Assembly (NCBI GenBank): GCA_039961735.1
Contig: JABRVX010000004.1
Span: 3,220 to 67,219, forward strand
Direction: 5' to 3'
DNA length: 64,000 nucleotides
Source: Fimbriimonadia bacterium
GTDB lineage: Bacteria; Armatimonadota; Fimbriimonadia; Fimbriimonadales; JABRVX01
The notes beneath the pieces were generated by a model. That model made no database searches. It was given only the letters and a program-made list of their open reading frames with translations, and was not told the origin of the DNA. Both the position numbers and the translations under genes were made by a program. The stretch's first letter is position 1. Each line of letters starts with the position of its first letter. Below, in pieces: positions 23,850 to 60,302 of the stretch.

Positions 23850-23935
23850 GGCGCGATGGCCGAGCGGTCAATGGCAACAGACTGTAAATCTGTCGGGAGT
23901 ACCCTACCTAGGTTCGAATCCTAGTCGCGCCACCA
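23850..23935 (+). tRNA. tRNA-Tyr (anticodon GTA), CCA encoded
   Basis: Hand-folded cloverleaf. Acceptor GGCGCGA/TCGCGCC, D stem GCCG/TGGC, anticodon stem ACAGA/TCTGT with loop CTGTAAA. Long variable arm CGGGAGTACCCTAC. T arm CTAGG-TTCGAAT-CCTAG, then ACCA. Confidence 0.9.
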
Positions 23936-23938
23936 GAA

Positions 23939-24013
23939 GCCCATGTAGCTCAGTGGTAGAGCACTTCTTTGGTAAAGAAGAGGTCACGAGTCCGATTCTC
24001 GTCATGGGCTCCA
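23939..24013 (+). tRNA. tRNA-Thr (anticodon GGT), CCA encoded
   Basis: Acceptor GCCCATG/CATGGGC, D arm GCTC-AGTGGTA-GAGC, anticodon stem CTTCT/AGAAG with loop TTGGTAA. T arm ACGAG-TCCGATT-CTCGT, where position 55 is C rather than the usual T. Confidence 0.85.
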
Positions 24014-24837: not shown

Positions 24838-26316
24838 CTACTCGAGAGCGGAACTGATGAACGCGGCGACGTCCTTCTTCAGCTTCTTCAGCGAGACGCC
24901 GTGGATGTACATCATGTGCCCAGCCTCATACTCGGATGTGTTGATACGATCCCGCAGCGATCTATCGAGCCCCATGTGCGCCAGCGTGTACTTCGTCGCG
25001 TAGTAGGGTGTGGCGAGGTCGTAGTAGCCCGATGCCACCATGAGACGCATATAGGGGTTTTTCGCGAACGCCGATCGGAGTGCTTCGCTGGTATCCGGAG
25101 GGCCCTCGCCCGCCGAGCCCCAGTCCCACGGTTTCTCGATACCTTCGCCTAACACGTAATAAGGCACGTAATAAGGAACGTCGGTCTTGTAGCCGAGGGT
25201 GCCGCGGATGTAGTCGTTGATCATGGAAGTGTAGGGGGGACGAATCGCTGCCATGCTAGGGTCGTGCTCCGGCCTTTCGGTTACTCCGCTAGCGTCCATA
25301 CCCTTGATGCGGCTGTCGAGCCGTCCGACCGTGCGTCCCTCGTCGCGGAGCAGCTCCTTGCAGAAATGGTGGATGTTCACACGAAGATCACAGTTACGGA
25401 TGAACCTGGGCTCCAGCCCGGTGTACCGCGAGAGACGCGATACCACCTCGTCTCTCTCCCTGACTGACAACCTGTCACCTTTTGCGAGTGCGAGGGTGTA
25501 TTCGGTGCCCGCCCATTGTTCCACCTCGGCCAGCGTCTTGTGAAGGTCCTTCATTAGGTCCTTCGGCAGCTTCTTGTGATACCACGCGGTAGCGGTGTAT
25601 GTAGGCAGGAAGAGCACGTACGGCAGGTCGTTGCCCTTGACGAATCGGGCTGTTAGAAAGTTGAGAATGGACGAGACGAGGATGATACCGTTGAAGGCGA
25701 TACCTTTCTCAATCAGGTGCCCGGCGAGGCCGGCAGCGCGAGTCGTGCCATAGCTTTCGCCTACCAAGAAGAGCGGGGACGTCCAACGCTCGAAGCGTGT
25801 TAGGAACAGCCGAATGAACTCTCCCACCGACTCGATGTCACCTTTCAGTCCCCAGAACTTCTCGCCGAGCTCCTTGGTGGCGGGACGGCTATAACCTGTG
25901 CCGACGGGGTCTATGAAACACAGGTCCGTGTCCTCCAGCCAGGTTTCCGGGTTGTCCACCAGTTTGTAGGGCGGTGGCGGTAGGTTCCCGTCGTCCTGCA
26001 ACCGCACGCGCTTCGGCCCGACGGCACCCAGGTGCAGCCAGAGCGAGGCCGAACCCGGCCCGCCGTTGAACGAGAACATGAGGGGTCGTTTCGCGCGGTC
26101 CGCGCCCTTCTTGAAGTACGCCATGAAGAAGACTCCCGCCTCGGTCTCACCGGTCGGCCCGTTGATGGGCAGCATGCCGGTGTGTGCTTCGTACGCTAGC
26201 GTCTTCTGGCCGATCTGCAGCTTGTGGGAGGTAACGACCGGCGGTTGGTCGGTGGTCAGCGGATAGCGTTCTTCCTTCTTTTCGTTCTTGTCGGCTTTCT
26301 GGTCGGGCTGTTCCAT
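24838..26316 (-). CDS. Peptidase S10 family serine carboxypeptidase
   Basis: 'PLMFSFNGGPGSASLWLHLGAVGP', 'FIDPVGTGYSR' and the nucleophile motif 'FLVGESYGTTRA'. No obvious signal peptide. Confidence 0.85.
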   Translation of the reverse strand: MEQPDQKADKNEKKEERYPLTTDQPPVVTSHKLQIGQKTLAYEAHTGMLPINGPTGETEAGVFFMAYFKKGADRAKRPLMFSFNGGPGSASLWLHLGAVGPKRVRLQDDGNLPPPPYKLVDNPETWLEDTDLCFIDPVGTGYSRPATKELGEKFWGLKGDIESVGEFIRLFLTRFERWTSPLFLVGESYGTTRAAGLAGHLIEKGIAFNGIILVSSILNFLTARFVKGNDLPYVLFLPTYTATAWYHKKLPKDLMKDLHKTLAEVEQWAGTEYTLALAKGDRLSVRERDEVVSRLSRYTGLEPRFIRNCDLRVNIHHFCKELLRDEGRTVGRLDSRIKGMDASGVTERPEHDPSMAAIRPPYTSMINDYIRGTLGYKTDVPYYVPYYVLGEGIEKPWDWGSAGEGPPDTSEALRSAFAKNPYMRLMVASGYYDLATPYYATKYTLAHMGLDRSLRDRINTSEYEAGHMMYIHGVSLKKLKKDVAAFISSALE

Positions 26317-26370: not shown

Positions 26371-29300
26371 CTATTGCCGAGACGGCGAAAGCCCGGGCTG
26401 CCGCGTGGACGATGGCGCGACGGGGGATTGAAGGACGATGTGCCACCACCAGTCGAGGGGTTTCCCCGCGGCATCTCGGCCGGCAGCGTGTGGAAGGTGG
26501 CTGAGCCACCACTTGGCGTGAGCGACCGTCTCGCCGGAGCCCCATTCCTCGGGGTTCAGCGCCCTACGGGTACCGCGCAGGTTGGGCCAGTTGTGCAGCC
26601 AGTCGTCGGATGAGCTCAGCACCGTGGTGTCACCAGGCGGGTGCGACAGTGTGCCGCACGCCGCTTCACCGGGTGCGATGGCTTCGTGTAACGTGAACCG
26701 GTCCCAATCGTGTCGTGGCGGATACCCGTTCCAGCCACCAAATGCGTGGGTCAGCAACTTTTCTGCCCTTCGACAGTAGGTCGCCAGGAGCCCGCCTAGC
26801 CCTTCCCGAACATCCGCCACCGTCACTACGAACGTCCGTCGGTAGGGAGGCTTGGAGATACCACTAGCATCGAGCTCGATCGCCTCTTCGCCGAACATGA
26901 ATGCGCCGGGTTTTAGAGAGTCGTTCGAGACCAGAACGAGTACTTCGTCCACGTTGCCTGCGTTCACTCGGACTGCTACCTCGGCGTGCCGGAGAAGCTG
27001 GTGCAGGCTACTCCCACGCACGAGAGCGTACTCGACGACCCGGTATTCGACCCTACCATGGCTGGCTTCGAAAAGGCACTGCGTGTAGCCATCCACGAGG
27101 TCCTGGCCGAAGGTGTCTTCCTCCCCCCGTGCATCTAGTACTAACAATCGTACCGGTCTGGACACGGCCAATTCGGATATGGCGGCGGGAGAAGTACTAA
27201 CTCGACCAGGGGCACCTATACCGGGGCGTTCCACCAGCAGTACTACCCGATCCAGTCCATCCACAGCGTAGAGGCCGAGTCGCCCTTCTCTCGTAACGTA
27301 GGCCACGTCGCTAGGTGCGTCGAGCGTTGCGTTGCCCATGTAGTTGCCGGTGGGGACGTTGTACGTGGCGAGCACGGTTCCCTGCTCATTGTACTCCCTT
27401 ACTACCTTTGAAGATGCATTTGTCACTGCCAACAGCACGGTCGAGCCGTCTGCACTGGCTGTCGCAAGGCCCACCTCCTTACCACCCGACCAATCGCCTG
27501 CCACCACCGACACTGGGAAGCCAGAGTCCACAGACAGCGAGGACCCGTCGAAGGAGAAGCGGTACAGACGGTTCATGCCGCGATCCACAACGTATACTTT
27601 GCCCTGAGTCAGCGGATGCGCCGCGACCGCCGCGGGTTTGGCACCGGCGTCCTCGAACTGATAGTGTGTCACGTACTTCGTGTTCGCATCCCACACGACC
27701 AACCTGCGGTTCCCTGTGTCTGCGATGGCAACGTACTCTGCGCCGGAGCGCAAGAACACTGCAAGTCCTCTGGCAGACTGGAGCTCCCGCCGAGCCGAGT
27801 CGGTACCTGTATAGCCGGCAAGGCGACTGCCCGAGAACCACGGATTCGTGTCCGACTGATTGAACACCAACGCATCGGTGTAGATGCGGTTTCCCGATAC
27901 CGCGTTGACTCTGGAAGACGTGGCGGTACCAATAACCAAGTCTCCGGGCAGATAGCGAGTCGCTGCCTGAGAGTTTTGTATCCAATATGGTGGGGTCTTA
28001 CTGAAGGAGCTCGCCTGATAGGACGGTATGTCGTTGCGAACGTCATAGCCGTAGGGGGCCGACGTGGGAGCCGTGACGAGGTCGAAGCGGTACTCGGGTG
28101 TCATGTCAGCGAACTGCAGCGTTGCGTAATACTTGCCCGCCGTAAGCTTCGACGCCACGACCTTCTGTGCCGTGTGGCCGAAGCGGAAGTGATAGAAGAG
28201 CTCGCGGTAGGGTGTCGTCCCATCGAAAAGCTGGCAGAAGGGGTTAGCGATTCCAGCGTTGGAGGCGACCAGCATTCTGCCCTGTCCGTCATCGCTGATG
28301 CCGCACGCGTTGGACAAGCCGGTTACGAAGACGCTGCGAGGAAGAGTTTCCACGGCGTCTTGAACGCCGCCAGGAGTCGCGGGGGCAGTACCTACGATGC
28401 GAGTCACTTCGTACATCGCGCGGTATCGATTAGCGTCGAAGGAGTCGGCCTCCGCCATATCCTGTACGACACGCACTGTATTGCCGTCGGCGGCGAAATC
28501 CCCGATGGCGTACCTAACGAACGTCGGCTGCCAACGGCGGTACACGCGGTACGTCGCGTTGGGCGGTCCCGATACCTCGAGACTCACCTTGCGCCCTTCG
28601 ACGGCAGCGGTGACGGTGAAATCAGGAGGAGCCGCGGTTGCACGATAGTTCGTGTGGAAGTCCCATGTCCACCCAGTCTCGTTCACCATCGAATGACCCA
28701 TGTAGGTATGACGGCTGTGAGATGCCGTGTCCTCTATGCCCCAGATCGTGGCATCTAGGTAGTGTTGACCTATACGGACCGTGAACACCTGTGCGAGACT
28801 GTGTATCAGCGATTGGTTCTGTGTGTAATGCCTTCTTCCGAAAGCGTCGGTCGTAGAACTGCCGAACAGGGATGTGATCTCCCATCTTCCATCAGACCCG
28901 GTAGTGCCACTAGCGAGGGGGGTCTTTGCACCATACGTGTAGAGGCTCACCTCGGCCCCCTGCACCGGTCTGCCATCGCAGTCGAGCACTCGCACCCACG
29001 TGCGGTCCGGGGCCAACGACTCCCATCCAGAGATACTATTATTGCGAGCTCCCACCAGGAAGCGCCTCATCATCTCGCAGGCAGGCCAGGAGATCTTCGT
29101 CTGCCCGGGTCCATAACTATCAGCAGCCCAACACCACGATGCGACCTGTACAGGTGTCCCATCCGCCATTTGGGAAGCGGAAGTAAAGACTGGGTGTGCG
29201 TAATACTGATACAGGTCACCGAGAGGGTGAAAGAGGTGACCCGTCTCGTGCAGTTCGGCACCACCGTCGCCCCAGTTGAACCGCTCCCAACCCTGGTAGT

Positions 29301-31083
29301 GTCCCCACCAGCCATCTAGCTCCCGCCAGCCCTCGTACTTGGCTTGCACGATCTGCCAGGCCTGGTTAGGATCCGCGGCGTCGGAAGGCCATCCGATTTC
29401 GTAACTGTCGAACCAGAGCCGCTGCAGGACATCTTGGCCGTCACGAGTGGCGGATCGCTCCCACATACACTGCACGGCGTCCGCTAGCTTGCGACTAAGG
29501 TACTCCTTGCTGGGTGGATCCCCCAGCACCGTGGGCTGTCTATCCGCAAGCGAGGCCTGGCTTCGGAAGATGGGGTGGAATGTCAGGCCGTGGATGGCGA
29601 ACTCGTATCGGTTGTTCCGCTGATTAGCATCGTCTGCCCACTCCAACACGGCGATTATCCACCGTTCCCCCACGTCGTCCAGGTTTATCTTTCGCCACGT
29701 AGCACGAGGACCGGCCAAGATGAGTTGGTATGGCCAGCTGAGGGTCACGATGCGCGACACGTAGCTCGGGCTGTTAGCATCGTACGCGGGGATGTCTTCA
29801 CCGATGAGGAAGTCGTAATCCGGCGTATCACAGGTGACGGGGTCCGTGTCGGCGTTCCGGTAGTCGCGATCCACCCACACCTTGAGCCGAACACTTCCAC
29901 CCGGGATGGTGCTCGCACCGGTGTTCTGCAAGTTGATCTCGTAACTGACAGTCTCGCCGTAGGCAGGCCAGCCATAGGGGGGACGCTCGTCCTTGCGTGG
30001 GCTGCGTTTGGCAAAGGATATCTGGGCGTCCGCTGTGTTCGATATGCTGTAGCGCGAGTTCAGGTCGGTGTTGATATACCCGAAGAGCCGCCCAGCGCCG
30101 AAGGCCAACCTGTTCCCCGCTTCCGCACCGAAGAACCCTGTCATCACCTTCTTGCTGGCGTAGCCCCCATTGCCTGGCATCCACTGTCCTGACAGCGCCT
30201 TGCCATCATACTGCGGACCTGGATCATACTTTCCACCCGGCTTGGCAGGCGCGACACGGAGCTGGTACCCGCCGAATGGAGGCACCAGCGTCAACACGTC
30301 GAACCCATCCTTCTGGTAGTCTGCGGCGCACAAGCCCCCTGGTACCAAGTTGGGCAGATCGCCCGCCCGGTCGTCCACTACGAATTCGAAGCGGTTCCCT
30401 GCCACGGTGTATCGGTAGAAGGCGATGCGAGTCTGGCCTCCAACTACCGTGGCAAGAGCGATGTAGTCCTTCTTCTCGCCCCAGAAGTCACCACATGCGA
30501 ACGCGATGAAGCTACCCTGCACGTTGGGCAAGTCCGACTCGGCGATCTTGCTCCAGGTAGTACCCATCGAGCTAGTAGGAGGATTCAGCATAGCGATGCG
30601 CACGTTTCCGTTGTACTCGGTCGCTATCAGCAGTTGATCCTTGGTAGCCCCACGCGGGTTTCCGCCGGCTGCACCCAGGAAGGTACCACTGATGCTTACG
30701 CCCGTCGAGACGCTCTTCTGTGACCACTGGCGGACCGCAAAGTGCTGTGGCGGCTCGTACACGTACATGAAGACCTGGCTACCCACCACCCGAATCGCCA
30801 CGATGTGGTCCGTGTCGAAGCTGGCGGGCCAGAAGTTACCCACCGTTAGTCCACCTACCGGCACATCGTCGAAGGAGGTGGTTCGGTCTATCCAACGGCT
30901 GGGCCACATTCCGTCCTTCGCACGCAAAGGGGGTTCGTACACGACGAGCCGCCGCTGCCCACCGACCTCCTCGAGAGCTGCGAAGTAGGAGAAGCCGAAC
31001 CCCCAGTGCTGCGGACCCGCATGACAGATGCAGACCGACACTACAGCGAACACGCACACCAGGCACGGGATGGCTGATCTCAT
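26371..31083 (-). CDS. 1570-aa secreted multidomain protein: FG-GAP-like N-terminus, CARDB-like plus HExxH module, NHL-like repeats, unassigned Trp-rich C-terminal domain
   Basis: SD AAGGAG. Signal peptide MRSAIPCLVCVFAVVSVCICHA. FG-GAP-like 'CGDFWGEKKDYIALATV' and 'CAADYQKDGFDVLTLV'. HETGH at 29236-29250. NHL-like 'IADTGNRRLVVWD' and 'VYVVDRGMNRLYRF'. Confidence 0.8.
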   Translation of the reverse strand: MRSAIPCLVCVFAVVSVCICHAGPQHWGFGFSYFAALEEVGGQRRLVVYEPPLRAKDGMWPSRWIDRTTSFDDVPVGGLTVGNFWPASFDTDHIVAIRVVGSQVFMYVYEPPQHFAVRQWSQKSVSTGVSISGTFLGAAGGNPRGATKDQLLIATEYNGNVRIAMLNPPTSSMGTTWSKIAESDLPNVQGSFIAFACGDFWGEKKDYIALATVVGGQTRIAFYRYTVAGNRFEFVVDDRAGDLPNLVPGGLCAADYQKDGFDVLTLVPPFGGYQLRVAPAKPGGKYDPGPQYDGKALSGQWMPGNGGYASKKVMTGFFGAEAGNRLAFGAGRLFGYINTDLNSRYSISNTADAQISFAKRSPRKDERPPYGWPAYGETVSYEINLQNTGASTIPGGSVRLKVWVDRDYRNADTDPVTCDTPDYDFLIGEDIPAYDANSPSYVSRIVTLSWPYQLILAGPRATWRKINLDDVGERWIIAVLEWADDANQRNNRYEFAIHGLTFHPIFRSQASLADRQPTVLGDPPSKEYLSRKLADAVQCMWERSATRDGQDVLQRLWFDSYEIGWPSDAADPNQAWQIVQAKYEGWRELDGWWGHYQGWERFNWGDGGAELHETGHLFHPLGDLYQYYAHPVFTSASQMADGTPVQVASWCWAADSYGPGQTKISWPACEMMRRFLVGARNNSISGWESLAPDRTWVRVLDCDGRPVQGAEVSLYTYGAKTPLASGTTGSDGRWEITSLFGSSTTDAFGRRHYTQNQSLIHSLAQVFTVRIGQHYLDATIWGIEDTASHSRHTYMGHSMVNETGWTWDFHTNYRATAAPPDFTVTAAVEGRKVSLEVSGPPNATYRVYRRWQPTFVRYAIGDFAADGNTVRVVQDMAEADSFDANRYRAMYEVTRIVGTAPATPGGVQDAVETLPRSVFVTGLSNACGISDDGQGRMLVASNAGIANPFCQLFDGTTPYRELFYHFRFGHTAQKVVASKLTAGKYYATLQFADMTPEYRFDLVTAPTSAPYGYDVRNDIPSYQASSFSKTPPYWIQNSQAATRYLPGDLVIGTATSSRVNAVSGNRIYTDALVFNQSDTNPWFSGSRLAGYTGTDSARRELQSARGLAVFLRSGAEYVAIADTGNRRLVVWDANTKYVTHYQFEDAGAKPAAVAAHPLTQGKVYVVDRGMNRLYRFSFDGSSLSVDSGFPVSVVAGDWSGGKEVGLATASADGSTVLLAVTNASSKVVREYNEQGTVLATYNVPTGNYMGNATLDAPSDVAYVTREGRLGLYAVDGLDRVVLLVERPGIGAPGRVSTSPAAISELAVSRPVRLLVLDARGEEDTFGQDLVDGYTQCLFEASHGRVEYRVVEYALVRGSSLHQLLRHAEVAVRVNAGNVDEVLVLVSNDSLKPGAFMFGEEAIELDASGISKPPYRRTFVVTVADVREGLGGLLATYCRRAEKLLTHAFGGWNGYPPRHDWDRFTLHEAIAPGEAACGTLSHPPGDTTVLSSSDDWLHNWPNLRGTRRALNPEEWGSGETVAHAKWWLSHLPHAAGRDAAGKPLDWWWHIVLQSPVAPSSTRQPGLSPSRQ

Positions 31084-51654: not shown

Positions 51655-52008
51655 TGGTGGAGGCGGGGGGAGTTGAACCCCCTTCCAAAGCCGATGCCTC
51701 TCGGGCGTCTACGAGCGTAGCCTGCCTTCTGATCTCGCGGAGCGCTAACCCGCAGGCGGGGATGCCACTCTCGCCAGTCCGGTTTCTTCTCGCCTCTCCG
51801 TGCTACGGACCGAAGCCGGAGACGCTAGTCGGATTTGTCCACGCCTCCTTCGCGCCTACCGACCCGGCGCTGGGAGACGGCTGCAGCTAATTAGGCAGCG
51901 TAAGCGTAAGAGTTCGCACTTACTGTTTGTGCCGCTTTTTTACGAGGCCAACGGCACCTCGGCTCGCAGCTCGAGCGCAAACCGACCCTGTCGAGCCCGT
52001 TCGCCCCC
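51655..52008 (-). ncRNA. ssrA: tmRNA (SsrA), 354 nt, standard one-piece
   Basis: The 5' GGGGGCG pairs with 3' CGCCTCC-ACCA, including a G3:U wobble. T arm GGGGG-TTCAACT-CCCCC. 'GGCCTCGTAAAAAAGCGGCAC' precedes the tag ORF GCG AAC TCT TAC GCT TAC GCT GCC TAA (51891-51917), which encodes ANSYAYAA. A perfect TATAAT at 52020-52025 lies 11 nt upstream. Confidence 0.9.
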
Positions 52009-53037: not shown

Positions 53038-54234
53038 ATGGATTTCTCCCTAACGAACGAGCACAAGTTGATTCAGGAGAGCGCGCGCCGATTTGCCGAG
53101 ACCGAGGTGCTACCCGGCCTGAAGGAGCGTGACCGAGAAGGAAAGCCCGACCCCACGCTGCTGAGGAAGATGGGGGAAGCGGGTTTTCTCGGCGTGTGCA
53201 TTCCCGCCAAGTATGGGGGACAGGACGCCGACTACATCAGCCTGGGCCTCGTGTGCGAAGAGCTGGAGCGAGCCGATAGCACGGCCCGCGTCATCATGTC
53301 CGTCCACGTCGGACTGAACAGCTTGGCACTGCTTCAGTGGGGGTCAGAGGATCAGAAGCAACGTTTCCTGGTTCCGCAGGCGAAGGGCGAGAAGTTCGCC
53401 GGGTTCGGGCTAACAGAGCCCAACGCCGGTTCGGACGTGATAGGCATTCGGAGCACCGCGGTACGCGACGGCGACACGTATGTGCTGAATGGCGAGAAGA
53501 CGTGGATCAGCCTGGCCGACCTGGCGGACAACTTCTTGGTGGTCGCATACACTGACCGCGAGAAGAAGGCACGCGGCATGACAGCGTTCATTGTGGAGCG
53601 CGGTATGCCCGGCTTTACAACACAACCGATCCATGGCAAGTTGGGTGTACGAGCTGGAGACACGGGCACGTTGATTATGGAAGACGTGCGCGTACCCGTT
53701 GCAAACCGAATAGGTGAAGAGGGTGAGGGTTTCAAGATCGCGATGTCGGCGCTGGACAACGGGCGATACACCGTGGGGAGCGGCGCCGTCGGCATCATCG
53801 TCGCGTGCCTAGACGCGTGCATCCCCTACTGCCGGGACCGAAGGACGGGCGGCCAGGAGATCGGCAGGCATCAGCTCATCCAGCAGATGGTAGCGCGCAT
53901 GGCGGCATCGCGAGACATAGGACGTCTTCTTTATTACCGATGTGGGTGGATGAAAAACCAAGGCATGCGTTGCACACGCGAGGTGAGCATGGCAAAGTGG
54001 ATCAACTGCGATAACGCATTTGCCGCAGCCAACGACGCAGTGCAAATCCACGGTGCCTACGGGTACAGCGACGAGTTCCCCGTAGAGCGGTACCTGCGAA
54101 ATAGCCGGGGCGCGGTGATCTACGAGGGTACACGAGAGATCCATACGCTGATGCAGGCGGAGTACGAACTAGGCTACCGCCACGACCGCCCGCTCCGCTG
54201 CGAACTCCCCGGCTGGCCATTCGAAACGGGCTGA
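53038..54234 (+). CDS. Acyl-CoA dehydrogenase (standard size, about 398 aa)
   Basis: Start at ATG 53038 (MDFSLTNEH...). 'FGLTEPNAGSDV', 'GEKTWISLA' and the C-terminal 'YEGTREIHTL' are ACAD hallmarks. Confidence 0.85.
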   Translation: MDFSLTNEHKLIQESARRFAETEVLPGLKERDREGKPDPTLLRKMGEAGFLGVCIPAKYGGQDADYISLGLVCEELERADSTARVIMSVHVGLNSLALLQWGSEDQKQRFLVPQAKGEKFAGFGLTEPNAGSDVIGIRSTAVRDGDTYVLNGEKTWISLADLADNFLVVAYTDREKKARGMTAFIVERGMPGFTTQPIHGKLGVRAGDTGTLIMEDVRVPVANRIGEEGEGFKIAMSALDNGRYTVGSGAVGIIVACLDACIPYCRDRRTGGQEIGRHQLIQQMVARMAASRDIGRLLYYRCGWMKNQGMRCTREVSMAKWINCDNAFAAANDAVQIHGAYGYSDEFPVERYLRNSRGAVIYEGTREIHTLMQAEYELGYRHDRPLRCELPGWPFETG

Positions 54235-54394
54235 GGCATGCAGCCTCACGACCTCCCACCCTTCGTCGAATCGCGTTGGGCTTCTCCTGTCGGTTCTCGG
54301 TCCTGTCAGCAGTGGGGATCGGCGCTTCTTACTCATCGTCACAGAGTAGGATCGGACTCAGATAGGGACACGACAACGACTTGGAGGCAAGGGT

Positions 54395-55525
54395 ATGCAG
54401 CTAATCGGCAAGGAAGAAGTACGCGAGATGTTGGAGCCGCGCGAGGGTCCGTGCGTGACCATCACGATGCCGCTCGAGCGGATGAGCGCGAAGGCGCGCG
54501 CCAACGGCACGAAGCTGCGAAACCTGTTGCGCCAGGCGCTGCGGTCGCTACTGAATGGCGGAATGAAGCGAGCCGAAGCGGAGGCGATGCTCGAGCCCGG
54601 CCACGCCCTAGCAGCCGAGGGCGCTCCCTGGCACGAGGGGATGAGCGGCTTGGCCTTCCACTTCGCCCCTGGTTACGCGAAAAAGCTCTTGGTGCCCATC
54701 TCGCTTCCCGAGCTGGCGGTCGTAGGTTCGAGGTTCTACATCAAGCCACTCCTATCGCTTCTCGGCGCGGAAGCCACGTTTGCCGTACTCGCCCTCAGCT
54801 CGAATTCACATCGCCTGGTGCGAGCCACGCGGTTCTCGACTCTAGCAACACTGCTCGAAGGGCCAGAGGAAGGCAGGAGGCCCACTCGCAAGGAGAAGCA
54901 ACTGCAGTTTCGCTCGGCGCCTTCGACCTCGGGAGGCGTAGTATTCCATGGACATGGTGCGGGTGACGAGTTGAAGAAGGAGGAGGTCACCAAGGCCTTT
55001 CGCGAGGTAGCTCGAGCGGTGAGTGAGGCCCTCCGCGGCTCGCAAGAGCCGCTTGTCGTGGCCTGCGTCGAGTATCTGTTCCCTCTGTATCGAGATGTCA
55101 ACAACTACCCGCACCTCGTCGGCGTCTGTGCCGCAGGTAACCCGGATGAGTGGACCGATGACGAGCTGCGCGCGCGAGCCTGGCAGGTAGTCGAGCCGGT
55201 CTTTGGCGCGGGTCGGATGGCAGCCGCCCAGCGCTACAGGGAAGCCAGAGAAGCGGGTAAGGCCGCGGACAACCTGGGCGAGTGCCTGCTTGCAGCGCAG
55301 GAGGGCCGGCTGGAAGTCCTGTACGTGCCCGTCGGCATCCAGGCGTGGGGTCGCTTCGACTCCGAGGCCGGACGCGTGGAGGTCCGCTCGGAGCCTGCGG
55401 CAGGCGACGAGGACTTGCTGAACCTCGCCGCCGCTCTCGCCCTCGCCGGAGGTGCCGCTGTATATGCAGTGCATCCGGACGAGATGCCCGAACATGGATT
55501 GGTGGCCGGGCTGGTTCGCTACTGA
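54395..55525 (+). CDS. baeRF3-like protein (bacterial member of the archaeo-eukaryotic release factor aeRF1 superfamily)
   Basis: 'CVTITMPLER...NGTKLRNLLRQA...GLAFHFAPGY...VVGSRFYIKPLLSLL...FAVLALSSNSHRLV' and the C-terminal '...EDLLNLAAALALAGGAAVYAVHPDEMPEHGLVAGLVRY' match my recollection of baeRF family 3/7 proteins. Confidence 0.5.
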   Translation: MQLIGKEEVREMLEPREGPCVTITMPLERMSAKARANGTKLRNLLRQALRSLLNGGMKRAEAEAMLEPGHALAAEGAPWHEGMSGLAFHFAPGYAKKLLVPISLPELAVVGSRFYIKPLLSLLGAEATFAVLALSSNSHRLVRATRFSTLATLLEGPEEGRRPTRKEKQLQFRSAPSTSGGVVFHGHGAGDELKKEEVTKAFREVARAVSEALRGSQEPLVVACVEYLFPLYRDVNNYPHLVGVCAAGNPDEWTDDELRARAWQVVEPVFGAGRMAAAQRYREAREAGKAADNLGECLLAAQEGRLEVLYVPVGIQAWGRFDSEAGRVEVRSEPAAGDEDLLNLAAALALAGGAAVYAVHPDEMPEHGLVAGLVRY

Positions 55526-56618: not shown

Positions 56619-59234
56619 GTGGACAATGAGGTCATCTCCAGCGGCATAGAGCCGTTGGATGAGGCAATACAGGGCCTTCGGCTAGGAGACAACGTCGTCT
56701 GGAGAGTCGCCAACCTCGCCGACTACCGGTATTTTGCCGAGCCCTTCGCTCGTCATTCCATCTCTGAGGGCAGAGACTGTTACTACCTGCGCTTTGCCCC
56801 GCACGAGCCAATCGTGAGCTCGGTTCCCGGTGTCAAAACCATCGAGCTCAACCCGAAGCAGGGATTCGACGCGTTCACCGGCGAGGTCTACGACCTGGCG
56901 GAGCGGCTCGGCGAGGAAGTATTCTATGTCTTCGATAACCTCTCGGCCCTGGTAGAGGAATGGGCTACCGACGAGCTGCTCGCGAACTTCTTTCAGGTGA
57001 CCTGCCCCTTCCTCTACGAGCTACGTACGATCGCTTACTTCGGGCTGTCCCGACAACAGCACCCTCACAGCGCTGTGGCCCGACTTCGCGACACACCCCA
57101 GGTACTGCTGGATGTGTACCGTGTGAAGGGCCAGATGTACGTTCACCCCATCAAGGTGCTCGGCAGATACTCCCCCCACATGTTCGTGCCCCACGCCGTG
57201 TCACCCGACGGGTGGACGCATGTCGTGCAGAGCGGCGATGCTGCCTCGGTCACGGCGGCCGCACGTAAGGCACCGCTCGGCGGTCCCATCACGCAGACCG
57301 CGCCGTGGGAGCGCGTGTATCGTAGGCTGTTGCAGTTCGTAGAGGACGGCGATGAAGTCCCCGAACAGAATCCGGAGATACGCGAGCTGAAGAGCCACCT
57401 ATGCCGCATGGTCATGGGCAGTCACCCGGGCTTCGACCGACTCGCTGATCGGTACTTCACACTGGACGATCTGCTGAGCGTTCGCAATCGGCTGATCGGT
57501 TCAGGGCGTGTCGGCGGGAAGGCTGCGGGGATGCTGTTGGCCCGTGCCATTCTGCGCTCGGAAGCCGAGGAAGTGGCGCTCGATTACGGGCCCATTCTGG
57601 AACGGCACGACTCCTTCTACATCGGATCGGACGTCTTCTTCACCTTCTTGGTAAGAAACCAGCTCTTCCGGGATCGGCTGCACATCAGTCACCGAGCCGA
57701 GATCTCGCCGGAGGAGTACGAAGAGATCAGGCGGCGGTTCCATTCTGCCACCTTCCCTGCAGAGATCGTGGATCAGTTCCGCAGCATGATTGACTACTAC
57801 GGTCAGGCGCCCATCATCGTGCGTTCCAGCAGCTTGCTCGAGGACAGCTTCGGCAACGCCTTCGCGGGGAAGTATCACAGCGAGTTCTTGGCCAATCAGG
57901 GGTCTCCCGAGGAGAGACTCGAAGCGCTGATGAGTGCGATCAAGCGGGTGTACGCGAGTGCGCTGAGCCCGGACGCGCTAGCCTACCGCAAGCGGCGTGG
58001 GCTGCACCGGAACACCGAACAGATGGCGGTGTTAGTGCAGCGCGTGTCCGGCATGCCGTATCGCAACTGGTTCTTCCCTGCACTGGCGGGAGTCGCCTTT
58101 TCGCGCAACATGTATGCATGGACGGACCGGATCGACCCCAAGCAGGGCGTCATTCGTTTGGTATTCGGACTGGGCACCCGTGCCGTGGAACGGGTTGGCG
58201 GCGACTACCCACGAATGATCCCTGTTAGCGATCCCTTCCTCCGACCAGAAACCGGCATGGATGTTGCGGTACATTCGCAGCACGCAGTGGACGTGCTGGA
58301 CACGACAGCCAACCGCGAGATGACACTACCACTCGCTGAAGTGTTGCGTAACCTCGACTACCCAGGCATGCACTACTTCGTCTCTCAGCGCACCGACGAT
58401 GACATCCAACATCCCGTAAGCAATCGCGTTGAGGGGCCCGCAGACAGGCTCGTACTTACGTTCGAAAACCTGCTACGCCGCACCGACTTCGTGTCGACTC
58501 TGGGTGGACTACTCGCACGGCTGGATGCGGCTTATGGCATGGCAGTGGACGTGGAATTCACGGCGCACGTTCGGCAGGACGGATCGGTTAGGGTCAACCT
58601 CTTGCAATGCCGACCCATGACGCTCCCCGGCGCTACGACTCGTGTCAGCGTGCCTAGCGACCTTCCCGCTGAGCGTGTCGTTTTTCGAACGAACAGGATG
58701 CTAGCAGGTGGTGAGGTACACGGTATTCGTCATATCGTCTACGTAGACCCGGGCGCTTATGTAGCCCTGCCACAGGACGAGAAGCGATCGGTCGGACGAG
58801 CGGTAGGTAAGATCAACGAACGCTTCGGATCGCAGGGGAAACTTCTGACCATGGGCCCCGGTCGCTGGGGTAGCAGCAATCTGGAGCTGGGTGTGAACGT
58901 CGGGTATGCCGACATCAGCAACGCTGCAGTGCTCGTGGAGATCGCGCGGACCGAGTCCGGGCAGGTACCCGAAGTCTCGTACGGCACACACTTCTTCCTG
59001 GATCTCGTCGAGGCCGAAGTGATCTACCTGCCCGTGTACCCCGATGAGCCGGAGACGCAGTATAACGAAACGGTGCTGCTTGGGATGTCGAGCGTTCTGA
59101 GTTCCGAGTTGCCGGAACTGTCCTCGCTGGATGGACTACTGCGTGTGATAGACGTGCCTGTTGCGACCGGCGGCATGCACGCCCACGTAGCCGCGGATCC
59201 CGACAGCCGCCAAGCAGTCTGCTACTTGGAGTAG
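56619..59234 (+). CDS. PEP/pyruvate-binding (PPDK_N ATP-grasp) domain protein with an N-terminal degenerate KaiC/RecA-like domain
   Basis: GTG start. The N-terminal 'GIEPLDEAIQGLRLGDNVVWRV' resembles the KaiC/RadA 'GI.GLD..L.GG...G' lead-in but has no GxxGxGKT P-loop. 'RVGGKAAGMLLA' begins PPDK_N. The C-terminal 'GPGRWGSSNLELGVNVGY...SYGTHFFLDLVEA' is typical of this protein family. Confidence 0.65.
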   Translation: MDNEVISSGIEPLDEAIQGLRLGDNVVWRVANLADYRYFAEPFARHSISEGRDCYYLRFAPHEPIVSSVPGVKTIELNPKQGFDAFTGEVYDLAERLGEEVFYVFDNLSALVEEWATDELLANFFQVTCPFLYELRTIAYFGLSRQQHPHSAVARLRDTPQVLLDVYRVKGQMYVHPIKVLGRYSPHMFVPHAVSPDGWTHVVQSGDAASVTAAARKAPLGGPITQTAPWERVYRRLLQFVEDGDEVPEQNPEIRELKSHLCRMVMGSHPGFDRLADRYFTLDDLLSVRNRLIGSGRVGGKAAGMLLARAILRSEAEEVALDYGPILERHDSFYIGSDVFFTFLVRNQLFRDRLHISHRAEISPEEYEEIRRRFHSATFPAEIVDQFRSMIDYYGQAPIIVRSSSLLEDSFGNAFAGKYHSEFLANQGSPEERLEALMSAIKRVYASALSPDALAYRKRRGLHRNTEQMAVLVQRVSGMPYRNWFFPALAGVAFSRNMYAWTDRIDPKQGVIRLVFGLGTRAVERVGGDYPRMIPVSDPFLRPETGMDVAVHSQHAVDVLDTTANREMTLPLAEVLRNLDYPGMHYFVSQRTDDDIQHPVSNRVEGPADRLVLTFENLLRRTDFVSTLGGLLARLDAAYGMAVDVEFTAHVRQDGSVRVNLLQCRPMTLPGATTRVSVPSDLPAERVVFRTNRMLAGGEVHGIRHIVYVDPGAYVALPQDEKRSVGRAVGKINERFGSQGKLLTMGPGRWGSSNLELGVNVGYADISNAAVLVEIARTESGQVPEVSYGTHFFLDLVEAEVIYLPVYPDEPETQYNETVLLGMSSVLSSELPELSSLDGLLRVIDVPVATGGMHAHVAADPDSRQAVCYLE

Positions 59235-59243
59235 CCGTCTGGG

Positions 59244-60302
59244 TCAGCTCGGCTCGGCCTCGTACAGGATCTGGTCCACCATCGAGGTGGTATCCATCAG
59301 CTCCAACACCAGGCCGCGGTGGTGGCGGGTGCTCCGCTCGCTGGGCACTAGCACCAGCCGATGCGAGCGCCCGAACATCTCCACCTCTCGATCCGTCAGC
59401 GCCGCAGGGTCATCGAACACCTGCTCGGCAAATGTGCGCAGGATGTTCATGCAGATCGTCTTCTGCTCGCGACCCACTTCGCACATCTCGAGGTCGGGGA
59501 GCCCGAGCTTCCGCATCCCGTGCGTGTGCAGCCACCAGCCACGTGCTTCCTCCGCAGCATCGAAGGCTACCAACCGTTCGAAGGTCTGTCTGGCGTTATC
59601 CGACATCATCTCCTTTTTCCAGCGCTCGCCGGTGTAGAAGCGCATTCCCTCGCGGTCGTAGATCAGCTCCGAGCCCATGAGGTCGGCCACAGCGTCTGCG
59701 AGATGCGCGACGAAGTGAAGGTAATCACGGTTCGGCATCGGCTCTTCGGCCACGAAGCGAACGATAACCATGGACTTCGCTTCCTTCATCGTGTCCATCG
59801 CCTCCGGCGGCACGACGGCCTCGTCGGAGTAGAAGTTGGGGTCGAACAGATGCCGGTTCTTTGGCGGCAGCGAGATGCCTACGTGCGTTCGGATGTCGGT
59901 GAGCAGCAGCGCCTCGGAAGTGCTCACCGCGGGCCTGCCGGAGGAGTTATGCGGATTCCCGCGCAGCAGTCGGTTGCTGATTGCGTGTTCGGAGGGAAGA
60001 TGCTCCTTGGGCGTCCACATCCAGAACTCGTGGACGATGGGCTGGGAACGCTGGAGCGAGGGGGTACGCCGAAGCAGACACCTGGCGCCTCGCGCCACCA
60101 CGTACAGCACCAGAACGAGTGCAATGGCCCAGCCAATCTCCCACACGCCGCAAAGTATGACACCCCGGCCGCTGGTACAATTGGCCATGGTCGCCATTTG
60201 GCGACGTCTCGAATCGGGGAGGAGCAGATTGGCCAAGGTGCAGCCGGGAGACCGAGTTCGGATCAAGGAGAGAGCCGCGACGGAGCAGGACGTTGCTTCC
60301 AT
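59244..60302 (-). CDS. Membrane-anchored DUF4261-like protein (start uncertain: 60302, 60197 or 60188)
   Basis: TM helix VILCGVWEIGWAIALVLVLYVV. The C-terminal 'GWWLHTHGMRKLGLPDLEM' resembles DUF4261/SUFU-like modules. There is no good SD at any candidate start. Confidence 0.45.
   Translation of the reverse strand: MEATSCSVAALSLIRTRSPGCTLANLLLPDSRRRQMATMANCTSGRGVILCGVWEIGWAIALVLVLYVVARGARCLLRRTPSLQRSQPIVHEFWMWTPKEHLPSEHAISNRLLRGNPHNSSGRPAVSTSEALLLTDIRTHVGISLPPKNRHLFDPNFYSDEAVVPPEAMDTMKEAKSMVIVRFVAEEPMPNRDYLHFVAHLADAVADLMGSELIYDREGMRFYTGERWKKEMMSDNARQTFERLVAFDAAEEARGWWLHTHGMRKLGLPDLEMCEVGREQKTICMNILRTFAEQVFDDPAALTDREVEMFGRSHRLVLVPSERSTRHHRGLVLELMDTTSMVDQILYEAEPS

Follow-up and report, generated by a model that had tools for sequence, protein, structure and literature searches.

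Balon (AOC03_06830) of Psychrobacter urativorans is a ribosome hibernation factor that was solved on the ribosome (PDB 8RD8/8RDV/8RDW; Helena-Bueno et al., Nature 2024, PMC10901736), where it plugs the A site and silences the ribosome under stress. In the decoding centre, its N-terminal insertion (HP motif) touches A1492 and A1913; its lasso-like middle-domain loop wraps around A2602, U2585 holds the corresponding loop outside the catalytic centre, and a bL27 trap loop is also present (PMC10901736). Two mycobacterial proteins, Msmeg1130 and Rv2629 (PDB 8V9J/8V9L/8V9K), are both A-site binders as well (PMC10901736), and a homologue from Synechocystis sp. PCC 6803, which is reported to be ~30% identical to Balon, was found on LrtA-bound hibernating ribosomes (bioRxiv 10.64898/2026.07.03.736309). 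The Synechocystis homologue touches the decoding and peptidyl-transferase centres via residues unlike those of Balon, and neither EF-Tu nor translating ribosomes were seen with it (bioRxiv 10.64898/2026.07.03.736309); because EF-Tu was not seen there, the EF-Tu step may not apply throughout the family. In total, four Balon-family proteins, mutually 15-30% identical, have been located in the A site of ribosomes that are not translating (PMC10901736; bioRxiv 10.64898/2026.07.03.736309), and the characterised members leave both the nascent chain and the assembled ribosome intact (PMC10901736).

A sequence-only reading of a gene in a 64-kb stretch of DNA from a Fimbriimonadia bacterium (the whole stretch analysed, hereafter the window) had described the family of its product as lacking experimental characterisation. 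The work cited above, with Balon on the ribosome in 2024 and two mycobacterial and one Synechocystis homologue in the A site, makes that description outdated. The main outcome of the present analysis is a correction: the family has already been characterised, and the tmRNA and c-di-GMP genes lying near this gene are unlinked to it. The protein itself is a fairly ordinary addition to a recently characterised family.

The gene and its family

The product of 376 aa ends in GGAAVYAVHPDEMPEHGLVAGLVRY, and the position, strand, length and terminus of the ORF (Table 1) are those given in the sequence-only reading. Because the N-terminus lines up with the N-termini of homologues in the alignment, the start codon call is sound. 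An identical protein is recorded in 7 contigs; its annotation, from a Fimbriimonadia MAG, says only 'hypothetical protein'. The nearest relative is 43-45% identical, and the median identity to the family is 37%, compared with a pairwise median of 41% within the family. No paralogue or second copy was found within the window. A scan for sigma-70 promoters and terminators around the gene, which is uninformative for this phylum, revealed no promoter-like site, and the sole terminator-like site (53963-53979, minus strand), located within the acyl-CoA dehydrogenase (ACAD) gene, is no better than chance.

Table 1. Positions of the gene and of the features of its product in the window
Feature	Position	Strand	Basis or remark
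Shine-Dalgarno sequence GGAGG	54383..54387	+	7 nt 5' of the ATG; seen in the sequence itself
Complete gene for the 376-aa baeRF_family3/Balon-family protein	54395..55525	+	ATG start; stop codon 55523-55525
N-terminal domain, aa 1-125	54395..54769	+	AF2 secondary structure; full-length alignment to Balon
N-domain loop and helix start, aa 26-44, PLERMSAKARANGTKLRNL	54470..54526	+	Alignments; census of 259 homologues
Middle domain, aa 126-270, RNase-H-like core	54770..55204	+	Pfam match to aa 129-305; AF2
Flexible loop, aa 159-190, where aeRF1 has its GGQ loop and Balon its lasso loop	54869..54964	+	pLDDT < 50
FHGHG motif, aa 184-188, conserved subfamily loop motif	54944..54958	+	Census of 259 homologues
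C-terminal Pelota/eRF1-domain-3-like domain, aa 271-376	55205..55522	+	AF2; Balon alignment to the terminal RY
C-domain beta-hairpin insertion, aa 318-331, WGRFDSEAGRVEVR	55346..55387	+	AF2 strands E318-322 and E327-331

The protein matches Pfam baeRF_family3 (PF18845) over aa 129-305 (profile positions 2-168 of 168) with a score of 114 bits and an E-value of 1.2e-32, the curated gathering threshold of this model being 31.5 bits. This is the top-scoring of five related baeRF models, and Balon, which itself falls in baeRF_family3, scores 105.6 bits on it. The NCBIfam model NF052287, 'AOC03_06830 family ribosome hibernation factor', was matched over aa 11-376 (profile positions 3-361 of 361; E 9e-28). 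The score of 97.8 bits is well under the curated equivalog cut-off of 330 bits and the protein is just about 22% identical to Balon, so that the match is not at the level of an orthologue. Judged by these sequence comparisons, the protein is related to Psychrobacter Balon, yet is no equivalog of it. All 41 aligned homologues matched NF052287 (best E 2e-54), and weak matches to the NCBI mycobacterial-Balon families NF052288 and NF052289 were found in 17 and 3 of these 41 relatives, respectively.

A PDB sequence search returned Balon (8rd8_B) as the single match, aligned over its full length. A profile built from the homologues aligned collinearly with Balon (E 1.1e-40), positions 7-383 of 383 covering Balon residues 3-369 of 369 and including the terminal RY. 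In a library of 1.84 billion proteins, 6,583 cluster representatives match at E ≤ 1e-3. The protein retains 67 of the 94 positions that are conserved at ≥80% in the family, including FHGHG. Residue frequencies given below are from a census of 259 homologues.

Balon-type proteins were defined as having about 360-420 aa and all three domains (Helena-Bueno 2024); the present protein, with 376 aa as against 369 in Balon, has all three. Msmeg1130 and Rv2629 share the same three-domain fold, but their identity to the present protein is 15-18% and NCBI keeps them in separate families.

The three-domain fold and its loops

The AF2 model (pLDDT 83.8, pTM 0.77) adopts the three-domain aeRF1 fold with the aeRF1-type N/M/C architecture, its middle domain being RNase-H-like and its C-domain of the Pelota type. 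Foldseek yielded 37 PDB matches at E ≤ 1e-3, every one of which was a Balon, aRF1/eRF1 or Pelota. The leading matches were Balon 8rdw/8rdv/8rd8 (E 6e-21 to 8e-20; TM 0.65-0.68), while the top TM of the search, 0.68-0.70, was obtained with Msmeg1130 (8v9j/8v9l); Rv2629 (8v9k) gave 0.58-0.59. Below these three were aRF1/eRF1 (TM about 0.4; aRF1 4af1, E 4.5e-13) and Pelota (TM 0.2-0.35; 3wxm, E about 1e-6). The profile and structural matches bear out the call, made earlier from the letters alone, of a stand-alone bacterial aeRF1-superfamily, baeRF3-like protein, with the Balons placed ahead of aRF1/eRF1 and Pelota.

The present protein is related by descent to aeRF1/eRF1 and Pelota/Dom34 and is built from the same three domains, but it has no NIKS, GGQ or zinc ribbon and reaches a TM of only 0.2-0.45 with them. 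The shared superfamily and fold, as well as the significance of Pelota and aRF1 in Foldseek, would fit a Pelota/Dom34-like rescue or quality-control factor that splits subunits or clears mRNA or peptide at stalled ribosomes in concert with a GTPase, ATPase or nuclease, and non-catalytic rescue was one option proposed for baeRF-1 by Burroughs and Aravind 2019 (PMC6514570). Such a role is nevertheless unlikely for this gene, given that the TM values of the Balons (0.65-0.70) are far above those of Pelota, that the nascent chain is kept and ribosomes are left unsplit by the characterised members, and that the gene neighbourhoods described in the next section contain no suitable partner.

The N-domain consists of a beta-strand, a long helical hairpin (H31-54 and H59-75) and a beta-sheet in the AF2 model, and on model and alignment it is the predicted counterpart of the aeRF1/Balon domain that binds the decoding centre. 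Residues 26-44 align gaplessly to the HP-motif region of Balon, KTHREHPANDQDPIALKN, and to the consensus PTHRxGxExxQxPIRLKN. The loop reads PLERMSAKARANG and has no His-Pro opposite Balon's KTHREHPANDQDP, the segments being of equal length without gaps; PLERMSA is present here in place of Balon's THREHP, and PLER in place of the PTHR of the subfamily. No other part of the protein is as atypical. In the census, T27 occurs in 73% of the homologues, H28 in 53% (E in 6%), Q36 in 83%, I39 in 80% and R40 in 93%, so that A36, T39 and K40 are rare residues at sites where the family is 80-93% conserved. H89 and R162 also stand at well-conserved positions and are unique among the 259 homologues.

These five rare residues, together with the distance to the nearest relative (just 43-45% identity), could point to a decaying or neofunctionalised copy that has lost decoding-centre binding. 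Several lines of evidence make this very improbable: the ORF is intact and preceded by a good Shine-Dalgarno sequence, the identical sequence recurs in 7 contigs, the fold is predicted with confidence, most of the conserved positions are kept, and the median identity of the protein to the family is close to the family's own. Furthermore, the N-loop is variable family-wide, exact PTHR being found in just 33% of the homologues, and the N-loop of the A-site binder Msmeg1130 has no His either in the profile alignment. Like the present protein, Msmeg1130 and Rv2629 have no NIKS, no GGQ and no literal His-Pro in the N-loop.

The middle domain is predicted, on the same kinds of evidence, to correspond to the domain extending to the peptidyl-transferase centre. 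Neither GGQ nor NIKS, for which a counterpart loop had been proposed as a check, is present anywhere in the 376 residues, and both are missing from Balon as well; FHGHG occupies the position equivalent to GGQ. In the census, position 185 is H in 78%, 186 is G in 93%, 187 is H in 62% and Q in 20%, and 188 is G in 85%. G186 and G188 align with the G-x-G of Balon (TGDG), which shares these two glycines alone of FHGHG; Balon's YTTGDGG corresponds to FHGHGAG here. Between aa 145 and 185 there are 40 residues, about 7 more than the 33 in Balon, the family median being 47, and the length of the loop spans 28 to 64 residues across the family. A flexible, Gly-containing middle-domain loop is a feature of both proteins, as is a two-strand insertion in the C-domain.

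The conservation of this motif at the GGQ-equivalent position (G186, H185 and G188) is above the expectation for a passive loop, and position 187 is Gln in a fifth of the members, as might be the case if F-H-G-[H/Q]-G stood in for GGQ in an active release factor or peptidyl-tRNA hydrolase. We regard this as very unlikely. Residue 187 is His here, not Gln, GGQ and NIKS are absent, loop-length variation of the kind seen in the family has been tied to inactive families by Burroughs and Aravind (PMC6514570), and U2585 keeps the loop of Balon from the catalytic centre (PMC10901736).

The C-domain ends in RY, a terminus common to Balon and the family (189 of 259 homologues), with R375 invariant in the 41-sequence alignment. 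W318 and G319 of the hairpin insertion are conserved at ≥90% in the same alignment, and the alignment with Balon is gapless here. In model and alignment, the hairpin lies at the place of Balon's EF-Tu(GDP)-contacting beta-loop, and an EF-Tu contact would follow by homology only. A two-strand insert in the Pelota domain of baeRF-1 was described by Burroughs and Aravind (PMC6514570).

Genomic context

The gene follows a FabD-like/ACAD gene pair, the ACAD gene ending at 54234, 160 nt upstream of the ORF, and converges on a PAS-GGDEF gene whose stop lies 25 nt past the ORF stop. A tmRNA (51655..52008, minus strand) is located 2,387 nt upstream. These coordinates agree with the arrangement noted from the sequence (after an ACAD gene, converging on a PAS-GGDEF gene, with tmRNA 2.4 kb upstream). 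The surroundings are housekeeping and metabolic, with unremarkable G+C around the gene.

The gene is a stand-alone one. No partner GTPase, ATPase or nuclease (Hbs1/aEF1a or ABCE1 type) was found within ±10 kb, upholding the earlier statement that a nuclease or ATPase partner is missing, and none recurs in 82 homologous loci, in which no conserved partner gene of any kind emerged from the neighbourhood analysis that had been proposed. Likewise, an eRF3/Hbs1/ABCE1-type partner such as accompanies aeRF1/eRF1 and Pelota is not present near the gene. The nearby tmRNA and an SmpB gene 3.6 kb from one homologue might have been taken in favour of ribosome rescue, and a relevance of tmRNA had been hinted at; tmRNA was found in 0 of 86 homologous loci, and a tmRNA/SmpB link was rejected.

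A link with PAS or c-di-GMP was also rejected. A PAS sensor adjoined the gene in 4 of the first 8 loci (combined with GGDEF in both the window and L009, with HD-GYP in L010 and with HisKA in L005). In the full set of 82, no locus other than the window and L009 has a GGDEF neighbour, and PAS takes up 5 of 155 neighbouring slots, 3 of these 5 being the loci behind the PAS idea. The nearby tmRNA and PAS-GGDEF (c-di-GMP) gene are coincidental and functionally unlinked to the protein.

Conflict-driven origins were suggested for the baeRF-1 clade by Burroughs and Aravind (PMC6514570), and MazEF and AbiEii genes lie a few kb off in two homologous loci; a component of anti-phage or inter-bacterial conflict that targets or guards the ribosome is still the least probable reading considered, and hardly credible. 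PADLOC-DB defence models gave 0 families at E ≤ 10, no defence gene is a recurrent neighbour in the 82 loci, and effector, mobile-element and toxin genes are absent around the gene, whose setting is the ordinary metabolic one described above.

Stress genes occur near some homologues: Usp was found in 9 of the 82 loci (adjacent in 4), and one homologous locus contains Usp, DksA, OtsA/OtsB and a cold-shock protein. The window contains no stress-gene neighbour. HPF/RaiA was found neither in the window nor in the 82 loci, using E. coli probes of low sensitivity, so that this negative carries little weight, and tuf (EF-Tu) is absent after the tRNA-Tyr/Thr pair at 23.9 kb. The present gene differs in these respects from Balon genes, which often adjoin raiA or stress genes, and from the mycobacterial genes, which are under hypoxia (DosR) regulation, a context not seen at this gene. 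A link with PEP synthase/PPDK_N is not recurrent (4 of 82 loci, adjacent in one); a PPDK_N protein is encoded two genes downstream in the window, and PpsA adjoins the Anabaena homologue.

Proposed role and position within the family

Since Balon belongs to baeRF_family3 and is the top PDB match in both sequence and fold, the best-supported role is hibernation rather than the rescue, quality-control or conflict roles cited in the sequence-only reading. The protein is probably a divergent Balon-family (baeRF_family3), non-catalytic ribosome hibernation factor, which, by homology, would bind the A site. In favour of this reading, besides the profile and fold matches, are the missing GGQ and NIKS, the many conserved positions kept and the stress genes near some homologues; against it stand the low identity to Balon, the atypical N-domain loop, a middle-domain loop unlike the lasso loop in both length and motif, and the lack of a stress-gene or RaiA/HPF neighbour in the window. 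When cells are stressed or stationary, the tRNA-shaped, three-domain protein would enter the ribosomal A site, with its N-domain seated on the decoding centre and the mRNA not read. The C-domain and its beta-hairpin would point towards the site where factors bind, perhaps holding EF-Tu(GDP), and the ribosome would stay inactive and shielded until better conditions return. That the protein binds ribosomes, that stress is the trigger and that EF-Tu is contacted at all are proposals drawn from homology to the solved complexes. If this assignment holds, Balon-type hibernation would be extended to Armatimonadota (Fimbriimonadia), and a gene still recorded as hypothetical would gain a name and a testable function.

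Psychrobacter Balon lies on the margin of a far larger and more conserved subfamily with an FHG[H/Q]G loop and a PTHR N-loop. The FHG[H/Q]G-loop baeRF3 subfamily, of which the present gene is a member, comprises >2,000 clusters at 50% identity (E ≤ 1e-30). A very improbable reading of this subfamily is that its loop performs chemistry or sensing at the peptidyl-transferase centre instead of acting as a passive plug, which would make it a distinct bacterial class resembling rescue or termination factors; the altered decoding-centre loop of the present protein would then be a further specialisation. Peptidyl-tRNA hydrolysis or checking and recognition of the CCA end are possible tasks for such a loop.

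The contacts of the subfamily with both ribosomal active centres probably differ from those of Balon. If the Synechocystis protein belongs to the subfamily, these contacts have so far been seen in one preprint only. The Synechocystis homologue may be a member, to judge by the cyanobacterial members, which show 25-28% identity to Balon and have the FHG[H/Q]G loop.

The gene and its surroundings

The gene encodes a 376-aa product (hereafter, the window protein), and both its reading frame and its C-terminus are identical to those proposed in the sequence-only reading. In the alignment, the N-terminus is in register with those of the homologues. The identical protein is recorded from seven contigs under the sole name 'hypothetical protein HRF45_01570 [Fimbriimonadia bacterium]', and it is labelled 'hypothetical protein' in both NCBI and JGI. 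This record assigns the window to an Armatimonadota MAG. The surroundings described earlier, namely an acyl-CoA dehydrogenase gene on the 5' side, a convergent PAS-GGDEF gene, and an upstream tmRNA, agree with the annotation of the window; as also described, no ATPase or nuclease partner was found within 10 kb of the gene.

PPDK_N is the ATP-grasp part of PEP synthase/pyruvate phosphate dikinase. It is the only Pfam match of an 871-aa protein encoded in the window. PEP-utilizers domains are missing from this protein, and no Pfam match is recorded for its long N-terminal region; a gene for a DUF4026_C-domain protein lies immediately past it. Elsewhere, a very large ORF (1,570 aa) and one of 492 aa adjoin one another downstream of a tRNA-Tyr/tRNA-Thr pair, behind which no tuf gene was found in the window.

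Features of the window gene and of other loci in the window
Feature	Position	Strand	Remarks
Window gene (ORF reading)	54395..55525	+	ATG start, 376 aa
Shine-Dalgarno GGAGG (sequence reading)	7 nt 5' of ATG	+	
FabD-like and acyl-CoA dehydrogenase genes	5' of ORF		gap to ORF, 160 nt
PAS-GGDEF gene	25 nt past ORF stop		convergent
tmRNA	51655..52008	-	2.4 kb 5' of ORF; predicted tag ANSYAYAA, unusually short
PPDK_N protein	56619..59234	+	871 aa
DUF4026_C-domain protein	59244..60302	-	
Large ORF	26371..31083	-	1,570 aa
Adjoining ORF	24838..26316	-	492 aa
tRNA-Tyr/tRNA-Thr pair	23850-24013		

Family assignment and relationship to Balon

The window protein matched Pfam baeRF_family3 with 114 bits (cut-off, 31.5) and, more weakly, the related baeRF families 7, 6, 8, and 11. 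The AlphaFold2 model, generated with 41 homologues as input, is a confident one (pLDDT 83.8; pTM 0.77) and comprises three domains with a single disordered loop (aa 159-190). All PDB structures matched by Foldseek at E<=1e-3 belong to the aeRF1 superfamily. The tests that the sequence-only reading had set as decisive thus all came out positive, and its assignment to this superfamily and to baeRF3 was correct.

The best Foldseek matches were the chains of Balon (8rd8, 8rdv, and 8rdw; E 6e-21; TM 0.65-0.68), the ribosome hibernation factor of Psychrobacter urativorans, followed by Mycobacterium smegmatis ribosome complexes containing the mycobacterial homologues Msmeg1130 (TM 0.68-0.70) and Rv2629. 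The TM-scores for all three proteins were higher than those for aRF1/eRF1 (TM ~0.4) and Pelota; a Pelota-like rescue factor, to which the weaker of these similarities might point, appears improbable.

The sole PDB sequence match was 8rd8_B (also 8rdv and 8rdw), over the full length. The single NCBIfam match, 'AOC03_06830 family ribosome hibernation factor', covered the whole length (E 9e-28) at a score far under the 330-bit equivalog threshold. Balon itself (residues 3-369, as reconstructed from the HMMER alignment) scored 105.6 bits against baeRF_family3 and hence falls in the same Pfam family, and a profile of the relatives of the window protein matched Balon with an E-value of 1.1e-40 over both full lengths, to a common C-terminal Arg-Tyr. 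By these profile comparisons, the window protein belongs to the same Pfam family as Balon, which has been characterized experimentally. In the PDB sequence file, chain B of the three Balon entries is still labelled 'Methyl-accepting chemotaxis protein', a legacy misannotation; searches by name would miss the connection between Balon and the window protein.

The window protein shares 22% identity with Balon (family median, 26%) and a median of 37% with its own subfamily, the internal pairwise median of which is 41%; its closest relative is 43-45% identical. As judged from sequence comparison, it is a divergent member of the Balon family from a poorly studied phylum, and not an orthologue of Psychrobacter Balon. 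A degenerating or neofunctionalized copy might diverge in this manner; the window protein retains 67 of the 94 positions conserved in at least 80% of 259 homologues, and we regard such a copy as very unlikely.

Loop motifs and proposed function

Helena-Bueno et al. (Nature 2024; PMC10901736) described Balon as a hibernation factor distantly homologous to aeRF1 and present in ~20% of representative bacteria. It lacks NIKS and GGQ, and it occupies the ribosomal A site independently of mRNA and jointly with EF-Tu(GDP). Its N-terminal 'HP motif' touches A1492 and A1913, its lasso loop encircles A2602 (a bL27 trap is also present), its C-domain beta-loop contacts EF-Tu, and Rv2629 and Msmeg1130 use the same binding site (PMC10901736). 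A Synechocystis homologue, ~30% identical to Balon, was found on LrtA-bound hibernating ribosomes, where its decoding- and peptidyl-transferase-centre contacts are unlike those of Balon and EF-Tu was not seen (bioRxiv 10.64898/2026.07.03.736309). With this ribosome-level characterization published, the earlier statement that such proteins are experimentally uncharacterized is out of date. For most baeRF-1 families, non-catalytic translation repression had already been predicted (Burroughs and Aravind 2019; PMC6514570).

In the window protein, the F-H-G-[H/Q]-G motif that typifies the subfamily is intact in the middle-domain loop (aa 184-188). Among the 259 homologues, H185, G186, and G188 are conserved in 78, 93, and 85%, respectively, and position 187 is His in 62% and Gln in 20%, the F-H-G-Q-G variant occurring in ~20% of subfamily members. 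Balon, in which the loop is shorter, has the two glycines alone in common with this motif. A catalytic role of the H-G-H/Q-G loop would be compatible with this conservation; however, neither GGQ nor NIKS was found anywhere in the window protein, and we give such a role little credence. A literal GGQ occurs in 22 of the 259 homologues, at unspecified locations in the protein.

The N-domain loop (family consensus, PTHRxGxExxQxPIRLKN) is atypical in the window protein, reading PLERMSAKARANGTKLRN, compared with KTHREHPANDQDPIALKN in Balon. This loop varies family-wide (exact PTHR, 33%; His28, 53%; Glu28, 6% of the 259 homologues), and Msmeg1130 likewise lacks the N-loop His, yet binds the A site. 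The C-domain beta-hairpin (aa 318-331), with the conserved W318 and G319, aligns to Balon without gaps.

The most likely mechanism of the window protein is Balon-like ribosome hibernation by A-site occupancy, which we consider probable. By homology, the protein would enter idle or stressed ribosomes at the A site and rest on the decoding centre, leaving the mRNA unread, and the flexible FHGHG loop would lie beside the peptidyl-transferase centre without release of the nascent chain. Access of tRNA and factors would be barred until growth returns, and the C-domain hairpin may hold EF-Tu(GDP), as in Balon. Of wider interest are the strongly conserved loop motifs of this large FHG[H/Q]G subfamily, which are absent from Balon.

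Gene neighbourhoods of the homologues

The comparison drew on six annotated loci of metagenomic or genomic origin. A further 80 were taken from species representatives in GTDB, with members of Chloroflexota, Desulfobacterota, Planctomycetota, Spirochaetota, Gemmatimonadota, Actinomycetota, Cyanobacteria, and other groups among them. Neighbour proteins of the 82 usable loci were clustered all-against-all, and cluster identities were recognized by eye from the sequences of representatives. No conserved partner gene was found among the 82 loci; the gene had rightly been called stand-alone. A PADLOC search for defence systems gave no match for the window protein, and a component of a conflict system is the least credible of the alternatives. 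The recurrent neighbours belong to common families: NtrC-type regulators (17 loci), ABC ATPases (12), Usp (9, adjacent in 4), P-type ATPases (6), trehalose-6-phosphate synthase/phosphatase (5), and PEP synthase (4). A full PEP synthase gene directly adjoins the baeRF3 homologue in Anabaena azotica, but PPDK_N was found in only four of the 82 loci. An early impression of a link to PAS/c-di-GMP genes disappeared in this larger sample. The nearby tmRNA had been implied to be relevant; none of the 86 homologous loci contains a tmRNA, which rules out a link to the baeRF3 gene and indicates that its presence in the window is a coincidence.

One locus (L007, 1..13158, encoding the homologue P0028) is a textbook stress cluster, in which genes for DksA/TraR, Usp, trehalose-6-P synthase (OtsA), a glycosyltransferase, trehalose phosphatase (OtsB), an S1-domain protein, CarD, ribosomal protein L35, and a cold-shock protein surround baeRF3, all on the same strand. 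Two subfamily gene copies were found on separate contigs of one MAG, Deltaproteobacteria bacterium DeMMO6_17 (L015 on JAGVBT010000047.1 and L021 on JAGVBT010000010.1, the latter beside a Usp gene), consistent with the reported occurrence of Balon genes in multiple copies.
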